A stretch of 64,000 nt of DNA from a virus. Below, one piece after another: positions 32,387 to 47,328 of the stretch. A program made the translations under genes and the position numbers. The notes below the pieces were generated by a model. That model was not told the origin of the DNA and searched no databases. It saw only the letters and a program-made list of their open reading frames with translations. The stretch covers positions 40,500 through 104,499 of IMG/VR virus record IMGVR_UViG_3300036770_000877. One strand, given 5' to 3'. Position 1 is the stretch's first letter; each line of letters begins with the position of its first letter.

Positions 32387-32555
32387 ATATTTTGTCACAT
32401 TGAATCTGGAAGTGGATATTAATAAGTATGACAACATAGAGGCCATAGTCGACTCTTTTGACCTAATCGGTTCTGCTGAAAACACAGAAGTGTTAGATGT
32501 TAGTTACGAGAAGGAAGAAGAGTTTGAAGATGACTTCGAAGAAGAAGAATATTAA
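32379..32555 (+). CDS. Acidic hypothetical protein
   Basis: GGAGG RBS, E/D-rich. Confidence 0.55.
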   Translation: MPKYFVTLNLEVDINKYDNIEAIVDSFDLIGSAENTEVLDVSYEKEEEFEDDFEEEEY

Positions 32556-32595
32556 AAAATAATCCCCCAGGATTTCTCCTAGGGGATTATTTTTT
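32554..32595. terminator. Bidirectional intrinsic terminator
   Basis: AAAAAATAATCCCC...GGGGATTATTTTTT between convergent genes. Confidence 0.8.
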
Positions 32596-32603
32596 AGAGC
32601 TTA

Positions 32604-33715: not shown

Positions 33716-33774
33716 ATATGTTTTCTCCTTCTAATATCCTCAATGGATATTATATATTGTATCAGATAAATAAA

Positions 33775-33869
33775 AAATGAGCAGTTTACATGGCCATGCT
33801 CAGGGCCCTTATGCCCGCACTAAGCTATCCGCAAGAAAGGTAGAACGGAAAGTAACACGGCGGTGCACA
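33775..33869 (-). ncRNA. Putative sRNA: long hairpin with anti-SD loop plus 3' pseudoknot
   Basis: Own promoter TAGACA-N18-TATAAT (33904-33875); stems GUGC/GCAU, CCGC/GCGG, GUUA/UAGC, UCCGU/GCGGA; loop UCUACCUUUCUU; ends in pseudoknot plus U-tract. Confidence 0.6.
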
Positions 33870-35249: not shown

Positions 35250-35780
35250 AGTCATCTAGGGCAAGGAGAATTTCTCTTGCTATCCCGTCGAAATTTATTG
35301 ATCCATTATTAAAATACTTACCTGACTGTATAAGCTTTTGTAGCGTATCAGCTAGATATTGCTGTTTTGTCATATCCCGTCCTCCTAATTTATTAGACGT
35401 AGATAATCAATTATAAGTTATATAGTCATTATTAGCAAAATACTCTATATGCCCTGTTTATTTATATATTGGTATTTTGTTAATAAAATTTTAAATTTTA
35501 CAAAGGTGTTTTCGTATATAGCTATGGGATCCTATTTTGAAAATCCCCCCACCCTTTCCATATTTACCAAAATGTTAGTAAATTTTTAATTTGTATGATG
35601 CAGCATTTTGCGATGTCCGATTTGTCCTAATAGCGAGCACAGATTTGTGAGCAAGGTCACAAAGTTTTTTTTCAAAATGTCCGATTTATCCGTGTTGTCC
35701 CCTTGAAAATGTCAGACCCCTCTGCTAGACTTTAGTCATAGAAAGTTGATAAAGGTTATCAACAAAGAAAGGAAAACAAA

Positions 35781-35993
35781 ATGTTTTCACTAAGTTATAA
35801 AATTCAATCAAAGTCCGAAAGTAATGTGTTCGGCACTTGTCTAGGTGTCGTGTTCGATACCGAACAAAAGGCTTGGTCATATCTTGACCTAGTAGAAAAG
35901 GATAACTACATCCTTGAATGTAATCTAAAAGAATTAGAAAACTACAAGCCTAGCAAGCGTGTAGTATTCGCTACTACTAGAAGTTGGGAGTAA
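35781..35993 (+). CDS. Early hypothetical protein
   Basis: AAGAAAGGAAAA RBS after the first promoter. Confidence 0.75.
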   Translation: MFSLSYKIQSKSESNVFGTCLGVVFDTEQKAWSYLDLVEKDNYILECNLKELENYKPSKRVVFATTRSWE

Positions 35994-35997
35994 TTCA

Positions 35998-36198
35998 ATG
36001 AATGAACAAACTCTACTAACTAAAATGGGTTTCTCTACTCATTCCGCCGTTTCATCTTCTATCGTATCCGATGGGTGGGAGCGTTTTGCCACCTGCTCAA
36101 AATGCGGTTTAGATATATCTGCCTTTTGGGTAGATGATGAAGACCGCCTTAGCGGTTGGTCATCTTGGAAAGCCACTAGTGGCTTATGCCAGGCGTGA
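35998..36198 (+). CDS. Early hypothetical protein (CxxC)
   Basis: ORF track. Confidence 0.6.
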   Translation: MNEQTLLTKMGFSTHSAVSSSIVSDGWERFATCSKCGLDISAFWVDDEDRLSGWSSWKATSGLCQA

Positions 36199-36305
36199 TA
36201 TAAATCACATCCAGCTCTCGGCGTGTCGCCTTGATATTGTCGGGAGTATCTGATAGTATTTACATATACAAATAAATAAATAAGAACCTAAAGAAAGGGG
36301 ACAAA

Positions 36306-36506
36306 ATGTCCGCAAATGTATATTCAATCGAAAACCTATTAGTAGGTAAAACCTATCGCTCAAATAGCCTAACAGGTGAAATAATCTCAGCCGAGCCTCA
36401 CCCTAAAGGTGTATGGTATGAGGGTTGCGATTCCTACTTAGTAGAAATCCGTAATGCTAATGGCGGTTATTCTTATCGCACAATAGCGGTAAAGGTAGGT
36501 GAGTAA
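36306..36506 (+). CDS. Early small beta-rich protein
   Basis: AAGAAAGG RBS; paralog of 39294..39509. Confidence 0.75.
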   Translation: MSANVYSIENLLVGKTYRSNSLTGEIISAEPHPKGVWYEGCDSYLVEIRNANGGYSYRTIAVKVGE

Positions 36507-36508
36507 TA

Positions 36509-36667
36509 ATGAAAATCACTTACTCAATATGGCAGGGCTCTATTATCAAGGGCTCAGGATTCACCGCCTCTAAAATGTCGGAGGTCGCTGATACAATAAA
36601 AGAACTAAACGCAACAGACACTAAACCAAAGTTTGAGGCGTATATTAGCAAAATCGAACAGAACTAA
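36509..36667 (+). CDS. Early hypothetical protein (52 aa)
   Basis: MKITYSIWQG...; below the ORF-track cutoff. Confidence 0.55.
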   Translation: MKITYSIWQGSIIKGSGFTASKMSEVADTIKELNATDTKPKFEAYISKIEQN

Positions 36668-36685
36668 CGAAAGGAAAACTAAAAA

Positions 36686-36850
36686 ATGGAAATACAAATC
36701 GAATTCTCAAAATGGGGTTTTGGTTTTTACTCTGATTTTCTTGCGCTAGATTTTACTTGGGGTTTTCTTGGCTCTCTTGTAGTAATCTATTTCGTAAATA
36801 AAATTCTAAAGCGTAATGAAATAAAATTATTTCGTAAAAGAGTAAAATAA
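36686..36850 (+). CDS. Early small membrane protein (54 aa)
   Basis: GAAAGGAAAA RBS, one TM, basic tail. Confidence 0.6.
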   Translation: MEIQIEFSKWGFGFYSDFLALDFTWGFLGSLVVIYFVNKILKRNEIKLFRKRVK

Positions 36851-36851
36851 A

Positions 36852-37022
36852 ATGATGACTAGAAAAGACTACATCACCGCTGCGGATATTCTAAATCAAG
36901 CATATCCAGAAAATCCCGAACTAATTTTAGAGATGGCTTCTGATTTCTCTGATTATTTCGCAAAGGATAATCCTAGATTTTCCCGCCCTCGATTTTTTGA
37001 GGCAGTAAAAAAGGGCTGGTGA
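36852..37022 (+). CDS. Early hypothetical protein (MTRKDY...DNPRF type)
   Basis: Motif pattern seen in small phage proteins. Confidence 0.65.
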   Translation: MMTRKDYITAADILNQAYPENPELILEMASDFSDYFAKDNPRFSRPRFFEAVKKGW

Positions 37023-37065
37023 GATAACTCACAAAACTGATCGGCGTGTCGCCTTGACAAATCTG

Positions 37066-37089
37066 CGACACGCCCGACAGCGGCGGGCC
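37066..37089 (+). repeat. 24-bp GC-rich repeat CGACACGCCCGACAGCGGCGGGCC, copy 1
   Basis: Identical at 39103 and 40344. Confidence 0.95.
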
Positions 37090-37091
37090 TT

Positions 37092-37107
37092 TCGAACAGA
37101 TGTTCGA
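37092..37107. promoter_or_regulatory. Actinobacterial SOS box (LexA site)
   Basis: TCGAAC-AGAT-GTTCGA, perfect match to TCGAAC-N4-GTTCGA. Confidence 0.8.
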
Positions 37108-37252
37108 TTTAAGAGAGCCCCAAAATGTGGTGTAAATCACAAAACAAAATGTCCGATTTATCCGATTACTGGTCAGTAAATGTCAGTGGTCTATGGTAGG
37201 ATACTAGGTATCAAGATGAGATAAAGGTTATCTCAAAGAAAGGTGGTCTAAA

Positions 37253-37465
37253 ATGGCTACATTAGAAATATTCGAAATGAACGAAAATGGTGCTGGTTGG
37301 GTATCATTAGAAAATGCTTCACAATCTACAAAACTAGATTTGGAATTAGCAATCATAACAAATGCTCCCGTGCAAATGTTGTGCTTCAAATGTCATACAC
37401 CAATTCCAAAAGGAAATGTGTGTTTCAATCATAAAAATGTGAGAGGTGGTATCTACCTTGACTAA
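37253..37465 (+). CDS. Early Zn-finger-like protein
   Basis: AAGAAAGGTGG RBS, CFKC...C..H. Confidence 0.7.
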   Translation: MATLEIFEMNENGAGWVSLENASQSTKLDLELAIITNAPVQMLCFKCHTPIPKGNVCFNHKNVRGGIYLD

Positions 37466-37564
37466 AGATGTTTTTGGATTTGAAAATGCAATTCAATTAG
37501 ACCATTTAACTTTAGAAGAGTTAAAAGAATTAGAAAATATTTTAGAAAAAATAAAATAATTTTT

Positions 37565-37637
37565 GGTGCGTTAGATTAGTGGTTAAATCACTACACTGTC
37601 ACTGTAGAGATCATGGGTTCAAATCCCATACGCATCG
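37565..37637 (+). tRNA. tRNA-Asp(GTC)
   Basis: Acceptor GGTGCGT/ACGCATC, anticodon arm CTACA-CTGTCAC-TGTAG, GGTTCAAATCC; no encoded CCA. Confidence 0.85.
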
Positions 37638-37644
37638 CTAGCTG

Positions 37645-37668
37645 CGACACGCCCGACAGCGGCGGCCC
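37645..37668 (+). repeat. 24-bp GC-rich repeat, copy 2 (1 mismatch)
   Basis: CGACACGCCCGACAGCGGCGGCCC. Confidence 0.92.
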
Positions 37669-37677
37669 TGTGGATAA
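37669..37677 (-). promoter_or_regulatory. DnaA box
   Basis: TGTGGATAA = TTATCCACA on the minus strand, intergenic; second perfect copy at 48052-48060. Confidence 0.55.
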
Positions 37678-37851
37678 CTTTGTCAATACGACACGCCGTA
37701 AAAACGCTGGAAATTTTTGTGATTTCTAACACAATGTGACGCACAACACATGTGATGTGGCTCACAATGTCCGATTTATACCTATTTTCGGCGGGAAAAT
37801 GTCAGTCCCCCCTGCTAGAATTGTGGCATAGAAAAAAGAAAGGATAACTAA

Positions 37852-37980
37852 ATGAAAATTTGTTGCTTCTGCGAAATTGACTTAGATAATGACGCTAAGT
37901 TTTGCTGGAATTGCCTAGAGTATAAAGGCGTAATGTCCGTTGAGGATTTTGAAAAATACTATGGAGAAAGGATTTCCTAA
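37852..37980 (+). CDS. Early Zn-ribbon peptide (42 aa)
   Basis: AAGAAAGGA RBS; CCFC...FCWNC. Confidence 0.65.
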   Translation: MKICCFCEIDLDNDAKFCWNCLEYKGVMSVEDFEKYYGERIS

Positions 37981-38072
37981 TGTCAGATTATCTTGATTAT
38001 CTAGATGAAATCTACGAGGAACTCGTAGACGAATTCGGTCATGAAATTGAAAGTAATTGTATTCATGACTAA
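37980..38072 (+). CDS. Early acidic peptide (30 aa)
   Basis: AGAAAGGA RBS; MSDYLDYLDEIYEELVDEFG. Confidence 0.55.
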   Translation: MSDYLDYLDEIYEELVDEFGHEIESNCIHD

Positions 38073-38171
38073 AATGTGAGGTATCTCACACCGACACTAG
38101 GGGCTAAATCCCCCAAAATGTCAGCCCCCAATGCTAAAATTGTATCCATAAAATAAAGAAAGGAAGTCAAA

Positions 38172-38354
38172 ATGACTTACACGATTAGACTAGAAACCTT
38201 CAATGGTTCAGTATCCAAAATCAACCTACCTTCTAAAGGTGCGGTTGCTCAATTCATCAACACTTATCCAAATCAACTCCCTGTCGGTATTTCCGTCAAG
38301 TTTGATTGCGACTTGCTCGGTGTTCGTGGTGTTCTAAAAGGAAAGGGAAAATAA
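38172..38354 (+). CDS. Early hypothetical protein
   Basis: Promoter at 38119 plus AAGAAAGGAA RBS. Confidence 0.75.
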   Translation: MTYTIRLETFNGSVSKINLPSKGAVAQFINTYPNQLPVGISVKFDCDLLGVRGVLKGKGK

Positions 38355-38355
38355 A

Positions 38356-38547
38356 ATGGAACTTTCTACACTAAATAAAATCAGCGATTTATTCAAGCAA
38401 CTAGAGGAAAAAAGATTTCCTAATAGTTCATCAAATAGCACGACCTCAATGGCTCGACAAATCGGCACAATGTCGGTTTTCGTTTCAGAAAAAAATGCTA
38501 AGCAAATAATTAAAATGTTAGAAAGAGAAATTGGAGAAATTGAATAA
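38356..38547 (+). CDS. Early hypothetical protein
   Basis: ORF track, GAAAGG RBS. Confidence 0.65.
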   Translation: MELSTLNKISDLFKQLEEKRFPNSSSNSTTSMARQIGTMSVFVSEKNAKQIIKMLEREIGEIE

Positions 38548-38699
38548 TGAAAAAAAATGTTTTAATCTCGTATGTTGTAGAGGCTGATACCGACCTATCC
38601 GCTATCTTTGCTTTACAAAAATCCCTGCGCTATTTACCTGATAGCGAATTAATTAAGTTTGACGCTTTCGAAGTTCTAGAAGTAAAGGAAAATAAATAA
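38547..38699 (+). CDS. Early hypothetical protein (50 aa)
   Basis: TAATG coupling on both sides. Confidence 0.6.
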   Translation: MKKNVLISYVVEADTDLSAIFALQKSLRYLPDSELIKFDAFEVLEVKENK

Positions 38700-38968
38700 T
38701 GATTAGCACCGCTCTAAAAATTCAAGACGCAACACAAAAAGCCGTTATGGATGAAAACATAATGAAAATGGCAGGCTTTATTTATACTCATAGAAATGAT
38801 GTTGATGACGAAATGATGGCTAAAATCATTTTTGAATATTCCGCAAATTTATCTGCTCTCGTTGCTACTTTGGTAAGCGAAGCAATTTTATCAGAAACCC
38901 AAATGAAAGAAATGATTTCAGAAATCGAAAGTTTTGAAAAAATTTCTAAAGAAGTTTTAGGAGAATAA
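38699..38968 (+). CDS. Early helical protein
   Basis: ORF track. Confidence 0.7.
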   Translation: MISTALKIQDATQKAVMDENIMKMAGFIYTHRNDVDDEMMAKIIFEYSANLSALVATLVSEAILSETQMKEMISEIESFEKISKEVLGE

Positions 38969-38969
38969 A

Positions 38970-39083
38970 ATGACAACAAATAGAATTTTAACAACGCTGG
39001 TTCAATTAATTTTAGCTGGCGTAACAATTCCACTTTTAATTTTAGCGATTAAAGATTTTAAACACGATCTAAAAAATAGATAG
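38970..39083 (+). CDS. Early single-TM peptide (37 aa)
   Basis: AGGAG RBS, hydrophobic stretch. Confidence 0.55.
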   Translation: MTTNRILTTLVQLILAGVTIPLLILAIKDFKHDLKNR

Positions 39084-39102
39084 TTTAATTTTCAACTAAA
39101 TC

Positions 39103-39126
39103 CGACACGCCCGACAGCGGCGGGCC
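39103..39126 (+). repeat. 24-bp GC-rich repeat, copy 3
   Basis: Exact copy. Confidence 0.95.
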
Positions 39127-39293
39127 TGATTTGTCCGATTTACGGCATTATGTCCGTTTTGCCAGAATTTCCAGATTTTTTTGTGAAATTTATCACACGA
39201 CACGCCGTATCAAAATATGAGATTACTTACGAGTAGGTTGAAAAATGTCAGTGGGTTTTGGTAAACTTGTAGGTATAAAGAAAGGAAAAACTA

Positions 39294-39509
39294 ATGCGTT
39301 CATACTCAATTGTAGATTTGCTAGTAGACCAATACTATGCGCCTACTTCTCTCCGCCGTCGTTTCAACGGAGGTATCATAAACTTTGCGGAAAAGCGTGA
39401 AGATGTCTATTTATCTGAAGGCTATGAAGCCTTCGCTATTCGCTTCCGCCCTACGGGATCTTTTCAAGACCAATGGGCGACAGTTGCCGTCAGGGTTTCC
39501 GACTACTAA
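39294..39509 (+). CDS. Early small beta-rich protein
   Basis: AAGAAAGGAAAA RBS; paralog of 36306..36506. Confidence 0.75.
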   Translation: MRSYSIVDLLVDQYYAPTSLRRRFNGGIINFAEKREDVYLSEGYEAFAIRFRPTGSFQDQWATVAVRVSDY

Positions 39510-39557
39510 ATGTCGGAGGCTTCTGCTAGACTTGTTCTATAAAGAAAGGAAAAGAAA

Positions 39558-39719
39558 ATGTCTGCTATAAAAAGACTAATTGAAAACATACTCGCTTGTG
39601 ATACCTGCTATGGAAAAGGTTTTATGGGTTGGGTTTCTCCAGACGGAGACTATGACTTTGAGTATTGCGATTGTAATCCTCATAACCTAGTTTTGGAAGG
39701 AAGCGAGGTAATTTTCTAA
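39558..39719 (+). CDS. Early Zn-finger peptide (53 aa)
   Basis: Promoter at 39511, RBS, CDTCYGKG...CDC. Confidence 0.65.
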   Translation: MSAIKRLIENILACDTCYGKGFMGWVSPDGDYDFEYCDCNPHNLVLEGSEVIF

Positions 39720-39829
39720 TGGAAATTTTTCTCTGCGATAAATGCGATACTCTCGCCCAAGTATCCCGAATTGGTGATACAATAAAAATAACTAAGTGTG
39801 CTTGCCTAGCACTAGATTGGAAAGACTAA
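39719..39829 (+). CDS. Early Cys-rich peptide (36 aa)
   Basis: CDKC...CAC, TAATG coupling. Confidence 0.5.
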   Translation: MEIFLCDKCDTLAQVSRIGDTIKITKCACLALDWKD

Positions 39830-40038
39830 TGGACTACTTATACTCGCTAACTATCTCCTATGACGGAGAATTGGTTTCAACAACCCGCTCATCGGATTTG
39901 CTAGAAATAGTAAATGCGTGGAATAAATGCGTGGACTTTGGAGATGCTAAAGAATACGCAACCTACAATTTATCAGACCCTAGTGGTAAGATGTATACCA
40001 AGAATTTCTACAGAAATGGAGTAGTAAATGGGAAGTAA
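39829..40038 (+). CDS. Early hypothetical protein
   Basis: Start reassigned to the ATG at the TAATG overlap. Confidence 0.65.
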   Translation: MDYLYSLTISYDGELVSTTRSSDLLEIVNAWNKCVDFGDAKEYATYNLSDPSGKMYTKNFYRNGVVNGK

Positions 40039-40306
40039 TCTATCAACCGAACTATCAAGTGGGCTATTGGATTTGGATTTGGAGCAACAGATAACTATTC
40101 AGTTGCGTTCTAATCATTACCCGCCCGTTCCGTATTCAATGGTTTCAGTTTGTATTGAAGCGATTGACGCATACAACGAAGGCGAACACAATAAAGAAAT
40201 AACTTTGCCTGAAGGCGTAAGTTGGCGTGGAAAAAATTCTGCACCTGCTTATTCAATTATTGACGGGCACCACTTGTGGGATTGGATTATCGAAAGCGAA
40301 TTGTGA
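40028..40306 (+). CDS. Early hypothetical protein
   Basis: QLRSNHYPPVP...HHL motif. Confidence 0.7.
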   Translation: MGSNLSTELSSGLLDLDLEQQITIQLRSNHYPPVPYSMVSVCIEAIDAYNEGEHNKEITLPEGVSWRGKNSAPAYSIIDGHHLWDWIIESEL

Positions 40307-40343
40307 TCTAAATCATAAAAGCTGCGGCGTGTCGACTTGACAA

Positions 40344-40367
40344 CGACACGCCCGACAGCGGCGGGCC
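40344..40367 (+). repeat. 24-bp GC-rich repeat, copy 4
   Basis: Exact copy. Confidence 0.95.
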
Positions 40368-40448
40368 TCAAATGTCCGATTTATGAGCTTTAAGTAGAAA
40401 CGCCGAAATTTTGTGGAATGTCAGTGGGTTATGCTAGACTAGTTTATT

Positions 40449-40583
40449 ATGAGAAAGAAAACGACTGAGGAATTACGGCGACTAATGGAGTTGCGCCGTA
40501 GTAATGCAGCCACGCCTGTAAAAAATAAAAAGGCGTATTCTCGCAAGCGCAAGCATAAATGTCGCCCCTATGGTGTAGAATAA
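40449..40583 (+). CDS. Basic 44-aa peptide with ArfA-like motif
   Basis: Near-leaderless after the promoter at 40419; KNKKAYSRKRKHK. Confidence 0.55.
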   Translation: MRKKTTEELRRLMELRRSNAATPVKNKKAYSRKRKHKCRPYGVE

Positions 40584-40605
40584 AATAAAGAAAGAAAGGT
40601 GCCCC

Positions 40606-41325
40606 ATGAAACTAAAACGCTCTAATGATAGAAAGGTTGCAAATGCAGTCTCAAGAAATGGAAAAACCCCAACAATTGCCAACACTTTTGGATTGCCTGC
40701 TGGAAAAGACTTCTCGTGTCCTGGTGCCACTAGTGTTTGTGAAAGCGTTTGCTATGCAGGAAAACTCGAAAGAGTATACAAGGGAGTAAAGGCTGTCCTG
40801 CTGCATAACTGGGAACTCCTACGCAATGCAGATATGGAAACAATGTCTCTATTGATTGATGAGATGATTGTTGACTTTGTTGCAGATTGTGAGAAAAAGT
40901 CTGCAGATAAATTATTCCGTATCCACTGGGACGGTGATTTCTTCAATGACACTTACGCATACGCATGGAAGGCTGTTATTGCTAATCATCCCGACGTACA
41001 ATTTTGGGTATACACTCGTGTAAAGTCTGCTGCTCTAATTCTAAAAGATATTCCTAACCTATCACTCTATTATTCTACTGATGATGAGAATAAAGAAATT
41101 GCTCATGAACTAAAACTAAATGACGGTATTCGCCTTGCTTATCTAGGAAAAACTTTCGCTGTCACCGAAGACAAAATGAAAGAACTAACTGGCAAGCCTG
41201 GTGCAAAATGCCCTGAGAATGCAAAACGTATTCCGTTGATTTCAACTAACGGTAGCGCATGCGTGTCATGCGGTCTATGCGTTTATGGTAAAGCAGATAT
41301 TCGATTTAGCGCAACTAAAAAATAA
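40606..41325 (+). CDS. GP88-family (radical-SAM-like Fe-S) phage protein
   Basis: FGLPAG..SCPGAT.VC..VCYA, FRIHWDGDFF, FWVYTR, C-terminal CVSCGLC. Confidence 0.75.
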   Translation: MKLKRSNDRKVANAVSRNGKTPTIANTFGLPAGKDFSCPGATSVCESVCYAGKLERVYKGVKAVLLHNWELLRNADMETMSLLIDEMIVDFVADCEKKSADKLFRIHWDGDFFNDTYAYAWKAVIANHPDVQFWVYTRVKSAALILKDIPNLSLYYSTDDENKEIAHELKLNDGIRLAYLGKTFAVTEDKMKELTGKPGAKCPENAKRIPLISTNGSACVSCGLCVYGKADIRFSATKK

Positions 41326-41333
41326 GGAGAAAA

Positions 41334-41447
41334 ATGAAACTATACAATGCATACATGGCCCTGTACTTAGGAAATGAAGAACAACAACAAGCTGCACAAG
41401 AATATCTCGACTCCTTGGAAGAATTAAAAGAAGAGGACCAGGAGTAA
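41334..41447 (+). CDS. Early acidic peptide (37 aa)
   Basis: AAGGAG RBS. Confidence 0.5.
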   Translation: MKLYNAYMALYLGNEEQQQAAQEYLDSLEELKEEDQE

Positions 41448-41686
41448 TTGGGTTACGTATTTGTAGCTTTATCTGTTGGGATCTTCTTGGTCCCCGCCGC
41501 TATAGTTTATTTACTATATAAGAAAAGCTGAGGCCCGCCCCGCATAAAGCGATTTGTCAAATTACGACACTGTGATTTTTCCCACAAAAGTTTTTGAGAA
41601 AATGTCCGATTTGACCCATTTCTAAGTTGCGCTCTGTCGGTCTGAAATGCTAAACTATTATTACCAACAAACGAAAGGAAGCAAAA

Positions 41687-41836
41687 ATGGCTAAGACACC
41701 AAAAATCGGTGAAACCATTACAACTGCTCAGAGCAAAGTTTCTGGCGTTGTAAAGGAAGTCGTAAAGAACCCATCTGGCTCGGTGCGTGTTCGTCTTGAT
41801 GTAGAGGGCGAAACTCGCTGGACTACTATCAAGTAG
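41687..41836 (+). CDS. Early small SH3/KOW-like beta protein (49 aa)
   Basis: Promoter at 41635, GAAAGGAA RBS; paralog of 42449..42631. Confidence 0.7.
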   Translation: MAKTPKIGETITTAQSKVSGVVKEVVKNPSGSVRVRLDVEGETRWTTIK

Positions 41837-41851
41837 TTTATCAGATAAAAC

Positions 41852-41882
41852 TGACCTGAGCAAGTCAATGCTAAACTGCTCA
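41852..41882 (+). ncRNA. Small H-type pseudoknot motif
   Basis: UGAC-CUGAGCAA-GUCA-AUGCUAAAC-UGCUCA; covarying copy at 33807-33778 (-). Confidence 0.6.
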
Positions 41883-41943
41883 CCAAGTTTATTCTGTCGG
41901 TGTGGTCTGATAGAATAGTAATACCAACTAAGAAAGGAAAAAA

Positions 41944-42366
41944 ATGGCAAGAAACGGCAAGGCGATAAATGTAAAAATCGCTACAACCAAAGTAATCAAG
42001 GCACTTGAGGGTGCGTTGGCTAAATTGGAAACTGAGTATGCTTCACAAGAAGCAAACGAGGCTAAGTATGAAAAGGCTCGTAAGGCTTGGGCTAAAGAAG
42101 TGGGTAAGTTAGCACTTGCTCAAATCTCAAAGGCAGAGAACCTAACTGCTTCTAAACGCTACAACAACGAGGTAAATGTTGATTTCAACTTACCTGCTGG
42201 AACTATCGTTCTACCTGATGAACCTAAAAAGGATTTCACCACAATGAACGAGTGGAACTATCGTGAGCAGAAAGAGGAAATTGAGAACGCTATTCGTATT
42301 CTCAAGATGACCGACGAGGAAGTCGTTTCCACTTCAACTTACAACGCTATCGCTAGATACTTGTAA
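41944..42366 (+). CDS. Early helical protein
   Basis: Promoter at 41895, AAGAAAGGAAAA RBS. Confidence 0.8.
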   Translation: MARNGKAINVKIATTKVIKALEGALAKLETEYASQEANEAKYEKARKAWAKEVGKLALAQISKAENLTASKRYNNEVNVDFNLPAGTIVLPDEPKKDFTTMNEWNYREQKEEIENAIRILKMTDEEVVSTSTYNAIARYL

Positions 42367-42448
42367 TCCTGATGGGGGAGGGGTGTTTGACCTCCCCCAC
42401 CAAATCTGATAAACTAAATATAAGCAAACAAAACGAAAGGAAAAACGA

Positions 42449-42631
42449 ATGTCCCCAGTATTCGGAAATAACAGCGATAGTTTCTATCGCAAGGGTGATG
42501 TATTCACAACTGGCAAGTCAGGTATCACAGGTCGCTTGGAGGAAATCGTATCAGTTAGACCAAATCTAACTAAGATTGCTCTACGCACACCTAACAACCA
42601 ACTTCGCTGGGCAATGGTAAAGATTGGCTAA
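42449..42631 (+). CDS. Early small SH3/KOW-like beta protein
   Basis: TTGACC-N17-TAAACT promoter (42387-42415), GAAAGGAAAA RBS. Confidence 0.7.
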   Translation: MSPVFGNNSDSFYRKGDVFTTGKSGITGRLEEIVSVRPNLTKIALRTPNNQLRWAMVKIG

Positions 42632-42797
42632 TCGATAGCCGATAGAAACAGTGGCAGTTTCGGGAATGTTCTCGCCACATGTCTTAAGTAAGAATTCCCA
42701 CCAAATTTCCCCTGGATGATCATGCGGAGTACAAAACAAAAATAGTAGACTCGTCAGAAGACGTCCAGGGGCCCAATTGGGCCACGGTCCATTCGAA

Positions 42798-42837
42798 TGC
42801 AGTCAGCTTGGTTACCTTTCTTTCCAGGCTGGCTGCA
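42798..42837 (+). ncRNA. Hairpin with anti-SD loop UUACCUUUCUUU
   Basis: 14-bp stem with two G-U pairs (plus strand favoured). Confidence 0.6.
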
Positions 42838-42989
42838 AGGCCCGCCCCGCCAAACCACGCTTGTCAAGTTACGACGATGTGATTTTGCCCACTAAAAAAT
42901 GTCCGAATTGCCCTAGTTTGCCAATCTAACTAGACATAGCCCACCTATGTATGCTAGACTTGATAAGTATCCAATAGAAAGGAAAAAAA

Positions 42990-44021
42990 ATGGCTACAAA
43001 TCTCGCTCATAAGCAAGAAGTAGAAAACGGCGATGTGTCGTTTGCTCTTGTTGATTCCCGCTCAAATCCTGCTTGGCACTCTTTTGCCAATAAGGTGTTC
43101 GATTCAGATTCAGGAGATGTTTCAATCTCCGACATAATGAATGGTGCTAAACTATCCAACTGGAATGTCCGTCTTGAAGATGTTGCGCCTCTTGCGCCAC
43201 AACACAATTTCATTACTGATTCATTCCTTGTTGTTCGTGATAACCCAATGACCGATGGTGCTACTGATGTGCTATCTGTTGTCGGTTCTCGCTATAAGGT
43301 TGTTCAGAATGAAGAACTATTCTCATTCGCTGAAAATCTCCACGATGGAAATCCTGATGTAAAGGTTGATTCTGCTGGTTCTCTAAAGCAGGGTCGCATT
43401 GTTTATGGTTCTTGGTCTTTGCCAAATGAACTAATCATTGACCCAAAGGGTGTTGCTGATAAGACAAAACTTTATCTTATCGTTTGGACATCTCACGATG
43501 GTTCTGTTGCTGTTCAAGCAGCAATCACACCTGTTCGTGTTCGTTGCCAAAACACTCTAAACCTTGCGATGAAATCTGCTAAGCAATCTTTCAAGATTCG
43601 CCACACGCAGACCGCAGATGGAAAGATTCTCGCTGCTCGTGAGGCTCTTGGTTTATCTGTTGCTTACTTTGACCAATTCTCAAAGCAGGCTAATGAACTT
43701 TATCAGGCTTCTATTACCGATAAGCAGTTTTCTGACCTTATCCGTAATCTTTACCCAAAGCCTGAAAAAGACGCTAAGGGTGCGTTGAAGAAGTGGGAAA
43801 ATAAGGTTGTCTTGATTGACGAACTTTATCATAACTCACCAACTAACGCAGGAATCAAAGGCACAAAGTGGGGTGCGCTAAATGCTCTAACTGAGCGTTT
43901 GGATTATTTCCGTTCTGCTCGTAAGGGTAATACGGAATCTCTTTCCGCTTCCGCTTCAGGTTTTGACCCTGTTATCACCGCAGAGAAAAATAAAATTCTC
44001 AAAGCGGTTGTCGCATTGTAA
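42990..44021 (+). CDS. DUF932 / phage-plasmid-like protein (TIGR03299 type)
   Basis: PAWH, VGSRYKVVQNEELF, AGSLKQG, TSHDGS, TPVRVRCQNTL, IRHT, GTKWGALNA. Confidence 0.88.
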   Translation: MATNLAHKQEVENGDVSFALVDSRSNPAWHSFANKVFDSDSGDVSISDIMNGAKLSNWNVRLEDVAPLAPQHNFITDSFLVVRDNPMTDGATDVLSVVGSRYKVVQNEELFSFAENLHDGNPDVKVDSAGSLKQGRIVYGSWSLPNELIIDPKGVADKTKLYLIVWTSHDGSVAVQAAITPVRVRCQNTLNLAMKSAKQSFKIRHTQTADGKILAAREALGLSVAYFDQFSKQANELYQASITDKQFSDLIRNLYPKPEKDAKGALKKWENKVVLIDELYHNSPTNAGIKGTKWGALNALTERLDYFRSARKGNTESLSASASGFDPVITAEKNKILKAVVAL

Positions 44022-44030
44022 AATGCTACG

Positions 44031-44060
44031 GGGGCGCAGAAATGCGCCCCCTATTTTTTT
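44031..44060 (+). terminator. Intrinsic terminator
   Basis: GGGGCGCA-GAAA-TGCGCCCC plus T-tract. Confidence 0.8.
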
Positions 44061-44215
44061 GATCTAAAGCTCGGCGTGTTGATTTGACAAAACAAGTTTT
44101 GCGGGGCGGGTCTGACTGTTTATTTTATCATTACGTCACAAGTTAAAAATGCCCTGGAATTTGCAGGATGTCAGTCCCATGGTGTAGTATTGTATTAAGG
44201 ATAGAAAGGTAGATT

Positions 44216-44425
44216 ATGAGTTGGCAATTAGAAGCCAGTTGCAGCGAGGACCAGCATGACTTGTTTTTCTCGCAGGCTAAAGGTAAAATGGATAGAGCAA
44301 TACAAATTTGTGGCTCGTGCTCTGTAAAGGGTGAGTGTCTTAAGTTTGCTATTGATGAAAAAGTAGAGTTCGGCATATTCGGTGGTCTCACACCGCAAGA
44401 GAGGAAAAAGAAATGGCTGATATGA
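44216..44425 (+). CDS. whiB: WhiB-family transcriptional regulator
   Basis: W..EASC...DLFF...ICGSCSVKGECL...FGIFGGLTPQERK. Confidence 0.9.
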   Translation: MSWQLEASCSEDQHDLFFSQAKGKMDRAIQICGSCSVKGECLKFAIDEKVEFGIFGGLTPQERKKKWLI

Positions 44426-46534: not shown

Positions 46535-46563
46535 ATATCCACTACTAAGAAAGGTAGGCCCCC

Positions 46564-47328
46564 ATGCCAAATTGGGTATATAACACTTTGACCATACAAG
46601 GTCCTAAAGAGGAAATTGATTCAATTAAAGAAAGATTGAATCGTCCTTTTACACTAGCGCAAGAGACATTCGGAATGGGCGATATTAGTTCATCTGGATT
46701 CCCGACTAAAATCACACAGGTAAGTTATTCTAATCCTGTATTTTCATTTCATAATATCCATTCGTATAAGGACGAAGGCATTACTGATGAAGAGTATGCC
46801 TGCCAGCCTGACCGTAGTGGTGTAGATATGAATGACCCTGACTGGTTCCGCAAGTCTGTTGAGTTTGCTAAAACTCAAAAGGATTGGTATTCATGGAACA
46901 ACTCCAACTGGGGCACCAAATGGGATGTCGCAGTTCGTGATGATGACGAATATCCAAATACTGAGTTACTTGAGTATAAGTCAGAGGGTCATGACAACTG
47001 GCTTGTATACAAGTACGAGACTGCTTGGTCACCTGCAGTAACTATCTTAACTAAACTATCTAACTTGGTTCCTAACTCTCTCCTTACACTGGAGTATGAA
47101 GAGGAACAAGGTTGGGGCGGAGAACTAGAAATTCTTCGTGGTGATGTTAAAACAATTCTAGAATATGAAACTCGTTGCTATGCATGTCAATCTTATGACT
47201 GTGTTGAGTATTGTGAGAATGACTGTGGTCAATTCTGCTCTGAATGCAATGAGGGTTCATGGCGAGATGAAGAAGCAATGGCAGAATGCGAAGAGCACAA
47301 GCCTTTACTTGAAAAGGTAGAGGTGTAA
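46564..47328 (+). CDS. YubB/DUF1281 ferredoxin-like domain protein
   Basis: MPNWVYN, WYSWNNSNWGTKWD, YETAWSP. Confidence 0.8.
   Translation: MPNWVYNTLTIQGPKEEIDSIKERLNRPFTLAQETFGMGDISSSGFPTKITQVSYSNPVFSFHNIHSYKDEGITDEEYACQPDRSGVDMNDPDWFRKSVEFAKTQKDWYSWNNSNWGTKWDVAVRDDDEYPNTELLEYKSEGHDNWLVYKYETAWSPAVTILTKLSNLVPNSLLTLEYEEEQGWGGELEILRGDVKTILEYETRCYACQSYDCVEYCENDCGQFCSECNEGSWRDEEAMAECEEHKPLLEKVEV

Follow-up and report, generated by a model that had tools for sequence, protein, structure and literature searches.

The DNA analyzed here encodes a plus-strand RNA hairpin, at positions 42798-42837, whose 12-nt apical loop is complementary to a class of Shine-Dalgarno (SD) sequence used by the early genes of the same phage. 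Comparative data indicate that this loop is under selection, whether it was ancestral and retained or was acquired twice, because it has been kept across a deep split in the phage family while the stem that carries it covaries. We see an even chance that the structure is an early-message 3′-end hairpin whose loop has been co-opted as an anti-SD element, and that it would pair with the tail-type SDs of early mRNAs and lower their translation alongside a second RNA encoded near 33.8 kb.

The window, that is, the whole 64-kb stretch that was analyzed, forms the right-hand 64 kb of a 104.5-kb IMG/VR record. The phage is an uncultured freshwater virus with a probable actinobacterial host. Relatives of the 343-aa protein encoded downstream of the hairpin come overwhelmingly from Mycobacterium, Streptomyces, Microbacterium, Arthrobacter and Gordonia phages; early promoters at 35709-44193 of the window have the form TGTCAGTG-N8-TAnnnT (repeat families D2 and D3), which resembles the actinobacterial RecA-NDp/PafBC type; and several homologous genes in relatives start leaderless. 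Together, these features make an actinobacterial host likely.

A Strand-Specific Hairpin in the 3′ UTR of an Early Gene

RNAfold pairs the 5′ arm (42798-42811) with the 3′ arm (42824-42837) in a 14-bp helix that includes two G-U pairs and closes the loop UUACCUUUCUUU (42812-42823), as an earlier note on this DNA had described. With short flanks, the hairpin has a folding energy of −32 kcal/mol and a z score of −3.16 relative to dinucleotide shuffles, none of which (0/200) folded equally well. The minus strand of the same region scores at chance level (z of +0.70); the fold is thus confined to the plus strand because of the two G-U pairs in the stem. Three C and eight U residues make up nearly all of the loop, and its 10-mer TACCTTTCTT occurs in three exact copies in the window, at 42813 (+), 33833 (−) and 46547 (−), the last of these being a plus-strand ribosome-binding site (RBS) read on the opposite strand.

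The stem, in which 8 of the 14 pairs are G-C, has the GC-rich character of intrinsic terminators and shares with them its place at the end of a transcription unit. However, it continues into AAGGCCCGCC rather than a U-tract, a U-tract is likewise absent from all four stem variants described below, and the hairpin was not among the entries of a terminator scan of the window. Lacking a U-tract, and with a loop of 12 nt, it is therefore not a canonical intrinsic terminator. Loops of 4 nt and U-tracts characterize the terminators of this phage, clear examples of which are the canonical terminator found by the scan at 44030-44051 (+) and the bidirectional terminator at 32553-32596. Rfam searches of the whole window at the gathering threshold returned only tRNAs and noise, with no match to 6C (RF01066) or c4, and the same was true at E values up to 10 for 42550-43050 and for the 33.8-kb hairpin region. 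No cultured phage was matched in a blastn search with the hairpin region.

A gap of 358 nt separates the two plus-strand genes that flank the hairpin, which is located 166 nt past the stop codon of an early gene for a 60-aa protein (42449-42631) and ∼95 nt before the promoter of the next gene, a position that corresponds, by annotation, to a 3′ UTR. The 60-aa gene also precedes the hairpin in the second clade that carries this loop (L047 and L108), and its C terminus, ...RWAMVKIG, is conserved upstream of the hairpin in alignments of both clades. The downstream promoter (TAGACA-N18-TGcTAGACT, 42931-42960, plus strand) is conserved in relatives and in the Streptomyces phage LilMartin. It drives the 343-aa gene (phrog_1221, 42990-44021, plus strand; SD AGAAAGGA at 42975-42982), and since it starts downstream of the hairpin, its transcripts do not contain the hairpin. 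Cultured LilMartin has the same order of hairpin, TAGACA...TGCTAGACT promoter and gene (L338:2400-2470). No conserved promoter was found directly upstream of the hairpin, a TAGACT-like box at ∼42746 being missing in L004, and an independent small-RNA gene at 42.8 kb is therefore not supported. Four metatranscriptome libraries yielded contigs that extend from the upstream gene across the hairpin into the downstream gene (for example, 42337-43502); such contigs, however, report no ends, strand or level and may reflect DNA carry-over, and stretches that they leave uncovered carry no information.

The sequences on either side of the hairpin are less constant. Alignment and fold show the segment from the stop codon to the hairpin (42632-42797, plus strand) to be a structured, variable spacer; most of it is replaced in L004, despite 94% identity of the flanking proteins. 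A 46-nt insert with its own hairpin, corresponding to 42708/42710, is found in L003 (2680-2730) and in contigs from three RNA libraries and is not present in the window. Directly 3′ of the hairpin is a GC-rich regulatory block that starts GGCCCGCCCCGC (42838-42896, plus strand; repeat family D13). A paralogous 59-nt block of the same family at 41531-41589, with 78% identity and the same start, has no hairpin before it and abuts the stop codon of a predicted small membrane peptide. In relatives, the interval between hairpin and promoter contains perfect DnaA boxes, TTATCCACA, at 20-60 bp from the hairpin; these are two direct copies in L047 (2860-2885) and an inverted pair at about −153 from the gene start in L069, L076 and L078, and the window retains them only in decayed form (42859-42886). 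These boxes may serve DnaA control of the promoter or a replication origin. Two further structures predicted around the hairpin were discarded: L003 does not retain an enclosing helix, UGGGCC/GGCCCG, and L047 does not conserve a pseudoknot of the loop with a downstream AAGG.

The Loop Is Conserved across the Deepest Family Split while the Stem Covaries

We gathered 80 related viral loci by means of the 343-aa gene (63-100% identity). Most have a GC-rich hairpin at the equivalent place, with loops of 3-15 nt and very different sequences, among them CUA, AUA, CAC, UGAUC, UCUUGUU, CUUUCCGA and several U-rich loops of 12-15 nt; the LilMartin hairpin has a UUCG tetraloop. Many of these hairpins begin a few bases past a stop codon. 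Because the loops mostly differ among relatives, the scaffold has a role that is independent of the loop. In this basic role, for which the anti-SD loop is dispensable, the hairpin probably marks or protects the 3′ end of the unit before it.

At this position, the loop UUACCUUUCUUU is limited to two groups, the window phage with L002, L003 and L004, and L047 with L108. In a maximum-likelihood tree of the neighboring protein, these groups fall on opposite sides of the deepest split with 100% support, so that the presence of the loop requires at least two changes of state on this tree. The two clades contain four versions of the stem, in which 7 of 12 pairs have changed on both sides and none is broken, and the 5′ arms of the window and L047 are identical at only ∼5 of 12 bases. 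In contrast, 47 of 48 loop positions agree across the four versions, and the 16-mer formed by GG, the loop and CC is identical throughout except for one U-to-C change in L003. G-U (G-T) pairs are present in three of the four stem variants. L004 differs in length by 1 nt inside the hairpin, and the flanks of L047 cannot be aligned with those of the window.

Exact copies of the 16-mer were found in 37 stretches of viral contigs, five of them hairpins, all five in the window phage group; the others are coding sequence or RBS complements. Among the matches listed for metagenome contigs, the only hairpins are copies of the L004 and L108 types, and the hairpin form is thus confined to the window phage group in the viral contigs and in the metagenome matches listed. 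Two matches were rejected on inspection, that in L223 as coding sequence of an organism with 63% GC and that in L161 as the complement of a bacterial clpP RBS.

Other lineages, too, often have a pyrimidine-rich sequence where the loop at this position is large, and partial complementarity to a purine-rich SD is then more likely. In several other subclades (L031 and L033-L035 versus L043; L048 versus L059; L071 versus L075), U-rich loops are more conserved than their stems; these loops lie at about −170 to −270 from the gene start and read, for example, UUUUUAUGUUUU versus CUUUUAUGUUCU and UUGUGUUUAUUCUU versus ...CCU. A search of the 7-kb loci for a cis partner of such large loops (UUUUUAUGUUUU, UUGUGUUUAUUCUU, CUUAAUGC and others) found no conserved complementary site.

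The Loop Core Recurs on Unrelated Scaffolds

A second anti-SD hairpin is located on the minus strand at 33828-33849, within a ∼95-nt promoter-to-terminator RNA (33770-33868). Its promoter, TAGACA-N18-TATAAT, is at 33904-33875 on the minus strand, and the RNA ends in a U-tract terminator. The predicted hairpin has a 5-bp stem unrelated to the 42.8-kb stem and a 12-nt loop, UCUACCUUUCUU. The matches to TACCTTTCTT and the two folds agree with the view of the earlier note that the two hairpins have unrelated stems with loops of the same length and a shared motif. Relatives of the 33.8-kb RNA (L258-L275) were collected by means of the adjacent hsp20 gene. They keep the promoter, the long hairpin, a GCAUAAGGG-CCUGAGCA motif and the U-tract, and the apical hairpin is modular. 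Indeed, UUCUACCUUUCUU is displayed on two different stems, CCG/CGG with the loop UUCUACCUUUCUUG in the window type and GGGG/CCCC with the loop UUCUACCUUUCUUA in L260, L273 and L274. Elsewhere, the apical hairpin has a UUCG tetraloop (L270-L272) or an AGG triloop (the complete genome G001). The 5′ half of this RNA has been swapped between phages with 99% identical hsp20 genes (L260 and the window phage).

Two more scaffolds, each following another early gene, were found among the loci related to the 42.8-kb region. L021 and L029 have the loop CUCCUUUCUUU, which can be written (C/U)UCUAACUCCUUUCUUUA, on a 9-bp GC stem just after the homolog of gene 41944-42366, and L017 and L018 have the loop UCCCUUUCUA on a 12-bp stem after a gene for a 176-aa protein. 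In a census of distinct hairpins in the 80 loci (stem of at least 8 bp, loop of 7-18 nt), CCTTTCT was present in the loop of 7 of 240 sense-strand hairpins, whereas loop shuffling predicted 0.25 and never gave more than 4 in 2000 shuffles. These seven hairpins come from four lineages and three genomic positions and are not independent. None of the 198 antisense hairpins had a CCTTTCT loop. Pyrimidine-loop hairpins at genome positions 8210 and 30553 were discarded since they are antisense inside long genes. The proposal that recurrence of the loop argues for function is thus strongly supported, and it is extended by the conservation across the deep split, the covariation of the stem and the occurrence of the core on further scaffolds.

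The Loop Is Complementary to the SD Class of the Early Island

The core CCUUUCU is the complement of AGAAAGG, the SD type of the early island, and is identical to the 3′-terminal heptamer of actinobacterial 16S rRNA (...CCUCCUUUCU-3′). The early island was defined as the plus strand of the window from ∼34.3 to 50 kb (15.7 kb), and a tail-type site as AGAAAGG or GAAAGGA/U without GGAG. Tail-type SDs precede 17 of the 30 SD-led ORFs of the island compared with 4-6 of 75 elsewhere in the genome, and 58 of the 75 genes outside the island have SDs of the GGAG/GAGG type. The plus strand of the 104-kb genome has 22 copies of AGAAAGG, and the island accounts for 17 of these. The island RBS is AAAGAAAGG, and repeat families D6 and D7 consist of this RBS plus ATG; these data bear out the complementarity between loop and island RBS noted previously. 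For the AGAAAGG and GAAAGGA sites of island genes, pairing with 16S rRNA is limited to its extreme 3′ tip. The loop data also show a conserved single-stranded seed on a varying scaffold, the combination that marks SD-pairing regulatory RNAs in general.

At four AGAAAGGU sites, the duplexes predicted between loop and SD have energies of −12 to −13 kcal/mol, equal to or better than those predicted for the 16S tail. The best of these candidate targets is the SD AAGAAAGGUA (46547-46556, plus strand) of gene 46564-47328, with 10-11 contiguous pairs and a predicted energy of −12.9 kcal/mol for the loop versus −12.5 kcal/mol for the 16S tail. For the other predicted plus-strand targets, the corresponding values are −12.7 versus −11.2 kcal/mol for AAGAAAGGUG at 40592-40601 (gene 40606-41325, phrog_1392), −12.0 versus −9.5 kcal/mol for UAGAAAGGUA at 44202-44211 (gene 44216-44425) and −13.0 versus −13.1 kcal/mol for AAGAAAGGUG at 37236-37245 (gene 37253-37465). 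The commonest island SD, AGAAAGGA, is predicted to form 7-8 A/U-rich pairs with the loop, at −8 to −10 kcal/mol, slightly weaker than its pairing with the 16S tail; general repression would therefore require a large excess of the RNA. The SD of the 60-aa gene itself, CGAAAGGA, has a predicted energy of −8.0 kcal/mol with the loop, and better predicted partners are thus on other genes.

Across the related loci, those with the loop contain 1-8 AGAAAGG sites each compared with a median of 0 in the 72 other loci, which mostly have CGAAAGG; these counts ignore phylogeny, and the L047 locus has few AGAAAGG sites. The comparison is suggestive of a tie between loop presence and AGAAAGG usage. Covariation between the loop and the SD of phrog_1392 in relatives gave no usable signal, with many leaderless starts and with GAAAGGU present in loop-less phages as well. 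In L050, L054, L076, L079, L030, L036 and others, the phrog_1392 homolog starts ∼7 nt after a TATAAT box and is apparently leaderless; in the window clade, this gene (40606-41325) has a leader with AAAGAAAGAAAGGU.

Discussion

The reading that we prefer is as follows. The 42.8-kb element would be a plus-strand RNA stem-loop in the 3′ UTR of the 60-aa gene, where it ends an early-operon message; the GC-rich stem would belong to the U-tract-less hairpins that appear to close early transcription units in this phage family. The 12-nt apical loop would have been co-opted to display CCUUUCU and, so exposed, would pair with the SDs of early mRNAs, the best candidates being the AGAAAGGU genes that start at 37253, 40606, 44216 and 46564. 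This pairing would compete with the 30S subunit, such that early translation would fall as early transcripts accumulate, and late genes with GGAGG-type sites would be spared. The promoter-driven 33.8-kb small RNA, which has the same loop, would act in the same way. The mechanisms proposed in the earlier note, feedback repression of early translation or host shut-off, are in keeping with the match of the loop to the island-type SD. Here, we infer three things from the comparative and folding data: that the RNA accumulates, that it pairs with the SD sites and that translation is lowered as a result.

A rival reading is a plain 3′-end hairpin, terminator-like, exonuclease-blocking or insulating, whose loop content has no function of its own. 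In most of the 80 relatives, the stretch between the last gene and the DnaA boxes and promoter holds a GC-rich hairpin, which in many cases begins a few bases past a stop codon. The loops of these hairpins range from 3 to 15 nt and include the UUCG of LilMartin. The earlier note had held that a hairpin acting only as a terminator, with a loop free to vary in relatives, would speak against function. The variety of loops agrees with part of that description; the rest does not hold, as the U-tract that marks the clear terminators of the window phage is absent and the loop is not freely variable where it is present. Moreover, phages on either side of the deepest family split share an identical loop with its closing pairs on diverged stems, and the core is found on unrelated hairpins and in a separate promoter-terminator RNA, with seven occurrences in the census versus 0.25 expected. 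We therefore regard a hairpin with a functionless loop as unlikely. A role for the loop as a mimic of the 16S 3′ tail that acts through a protein, as a decoy or binding site for S1, an anti-SD nuclease or a phage RNA-binding protein, also seems to us improbable. It would account for the identity of CCUUUCU with the actinobacterial 16S terminal heptamer, which is established knowledge, for the CUCCUUUCU of L021 and L029, which equals nine bases of the 16S tail, for the tail-like UCACCU... of L003 and for the display of the loop on very stable stems, as a ligand would be displayed. However, the analysis yielded no candidate protein, and both the 42.8-kb and the 33.8-kb family conserve an A before CCUUUCU that differs from the 16S tail and lengthens the pairing with AGAAAGGU; pairing with mRNA therefore fits better than tail mimicry.

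Two other explanations place the signal outside a regulatory RNA. The structure could operate at the DNA level, in a region of replication or regulation where it would form a hairpin or cruciform with a loop read by a DNA-binding protein, and the perfect TTATCCACA boxes 20-60 bp downstream in relatives, together with the dense array of operator-like sites in the region, are in keeping with this. The G-U (G-T) pairs in three of four variants, however, leave a good fold on one strand only, the DnaA boxes of the window are decayed, the 33.8-kb RNA unit has the same loop without such boxes and all copies of the core are sense to the local genes. We consider a DNA-level role very unlikely. Finally, a 50-aa ORF with a TTG start (42777-42929) overlaps the hairpin, which might then be coding sequence or a chance fold. 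This we find barely credible and already at odds with the comparisons among relatives, in which the stem covaries, the 1-nt difference in L004 breaks the frame and the flanks of L047 are unalignable; in addition, all 200 shuffles fold less well.

To our knowledge, almost nothing has been reported on regulatory RNAs of lytic phages, particularly of actinophages, and we found no description of anti-SD-loop hairpins in actinophages in the published literature. A 2025 review of phage-derived small RNAs mentions neither Actinobacteria nor mycobacteriophages (PMC12197685). Known RNAs nonetheless offer partial parallels. The 6C sRNA of Actinobacteria (RF01066) pairs with mRNA through its loops without a chaperone (PMC6486639), and it resembles the 42.8-kb element in using pyrimidine-rich hairpin loops as direct sites for purine-rich mRNA, a pairing that is only predicted here. 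However, 6C is a host gene with its own conserved fold and C-rich loops of six or more C, whereas the present element is a phage-encoded 3′-UTR hairpin with a U/C loop that copies the 16S tail and with no Rfam match. In Staphylococcus aureus, an anti-SD motif in the 3′ UTR of icaR mRNA pairs with the SD and blocks the initiation complex (PMC3868564). The location in a 3′ UTR is shared, but the UCCCCUG of icaR acts on the SD of its own mRNA, whereas the best predicted matches of our loop are on other early genes, its own SD reaching −8 kcal/mol. The c4 antisense RNA of phages P1 and P7, whose loops pair around a phage-mRNA RBS, is likewise a phage-encoded RNA with loops complementary to a phage RBS; it has one target, the ant/icd operon (reviewed in PMC12197685), and is a defined Rfam family, whereas the present loop matches a whole SD class and has no Rfam match. 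The s-SodF RNA of Streptomyces, a small RNA processed from the 3′ UTR of sodF mRNA that pairs with another mRNA (PMC3919588), is an actinobacterial precedent for a stable 3′-UTR fragment that acts by pairing, but it targets a single mRNA and not an SD class. The 42.8-kb element is not a member of 6C, icaR, c4 or s-SodF, given the absence of an Rfam match, its different loop chemistry and its different origin.

On the comparative data alone, the finding describes a selected short RNA motif on interchangeable scaffolds, matched to the RBS class that separates early from late genes. If the pairing is real, it would give the phage a simple, portable means of timing translation, would explain the unusual SD of the early genes and would provide a compact tool for SD-class-specific repression in Actinobacteria. 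A broader proposal, which we put forward tentatively and with more doubt than confidence, is that this actinophage family has an RNA-only switch from early to late translation, in which 3′-end hairpins of early messages and a dedicated small RNA, all displaying the terminal 16S heptamer, would on accumulation cover AGAAAGG sites, which serve early genes almost exclusively, while late genes with GGAGG sites stay translatable, the motif having been inserted repeatedly into the loops of pre-existing hairpins. The RegA and RegB proteins of phage T4 shut down early-gene translation at the ribosome-binding sites of early mRNAs; the analogy is one of function only, with proteins there and RNA here. 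If true, such an RNA-only switch would be the RNA counterpart of T4 RegA/RegB.
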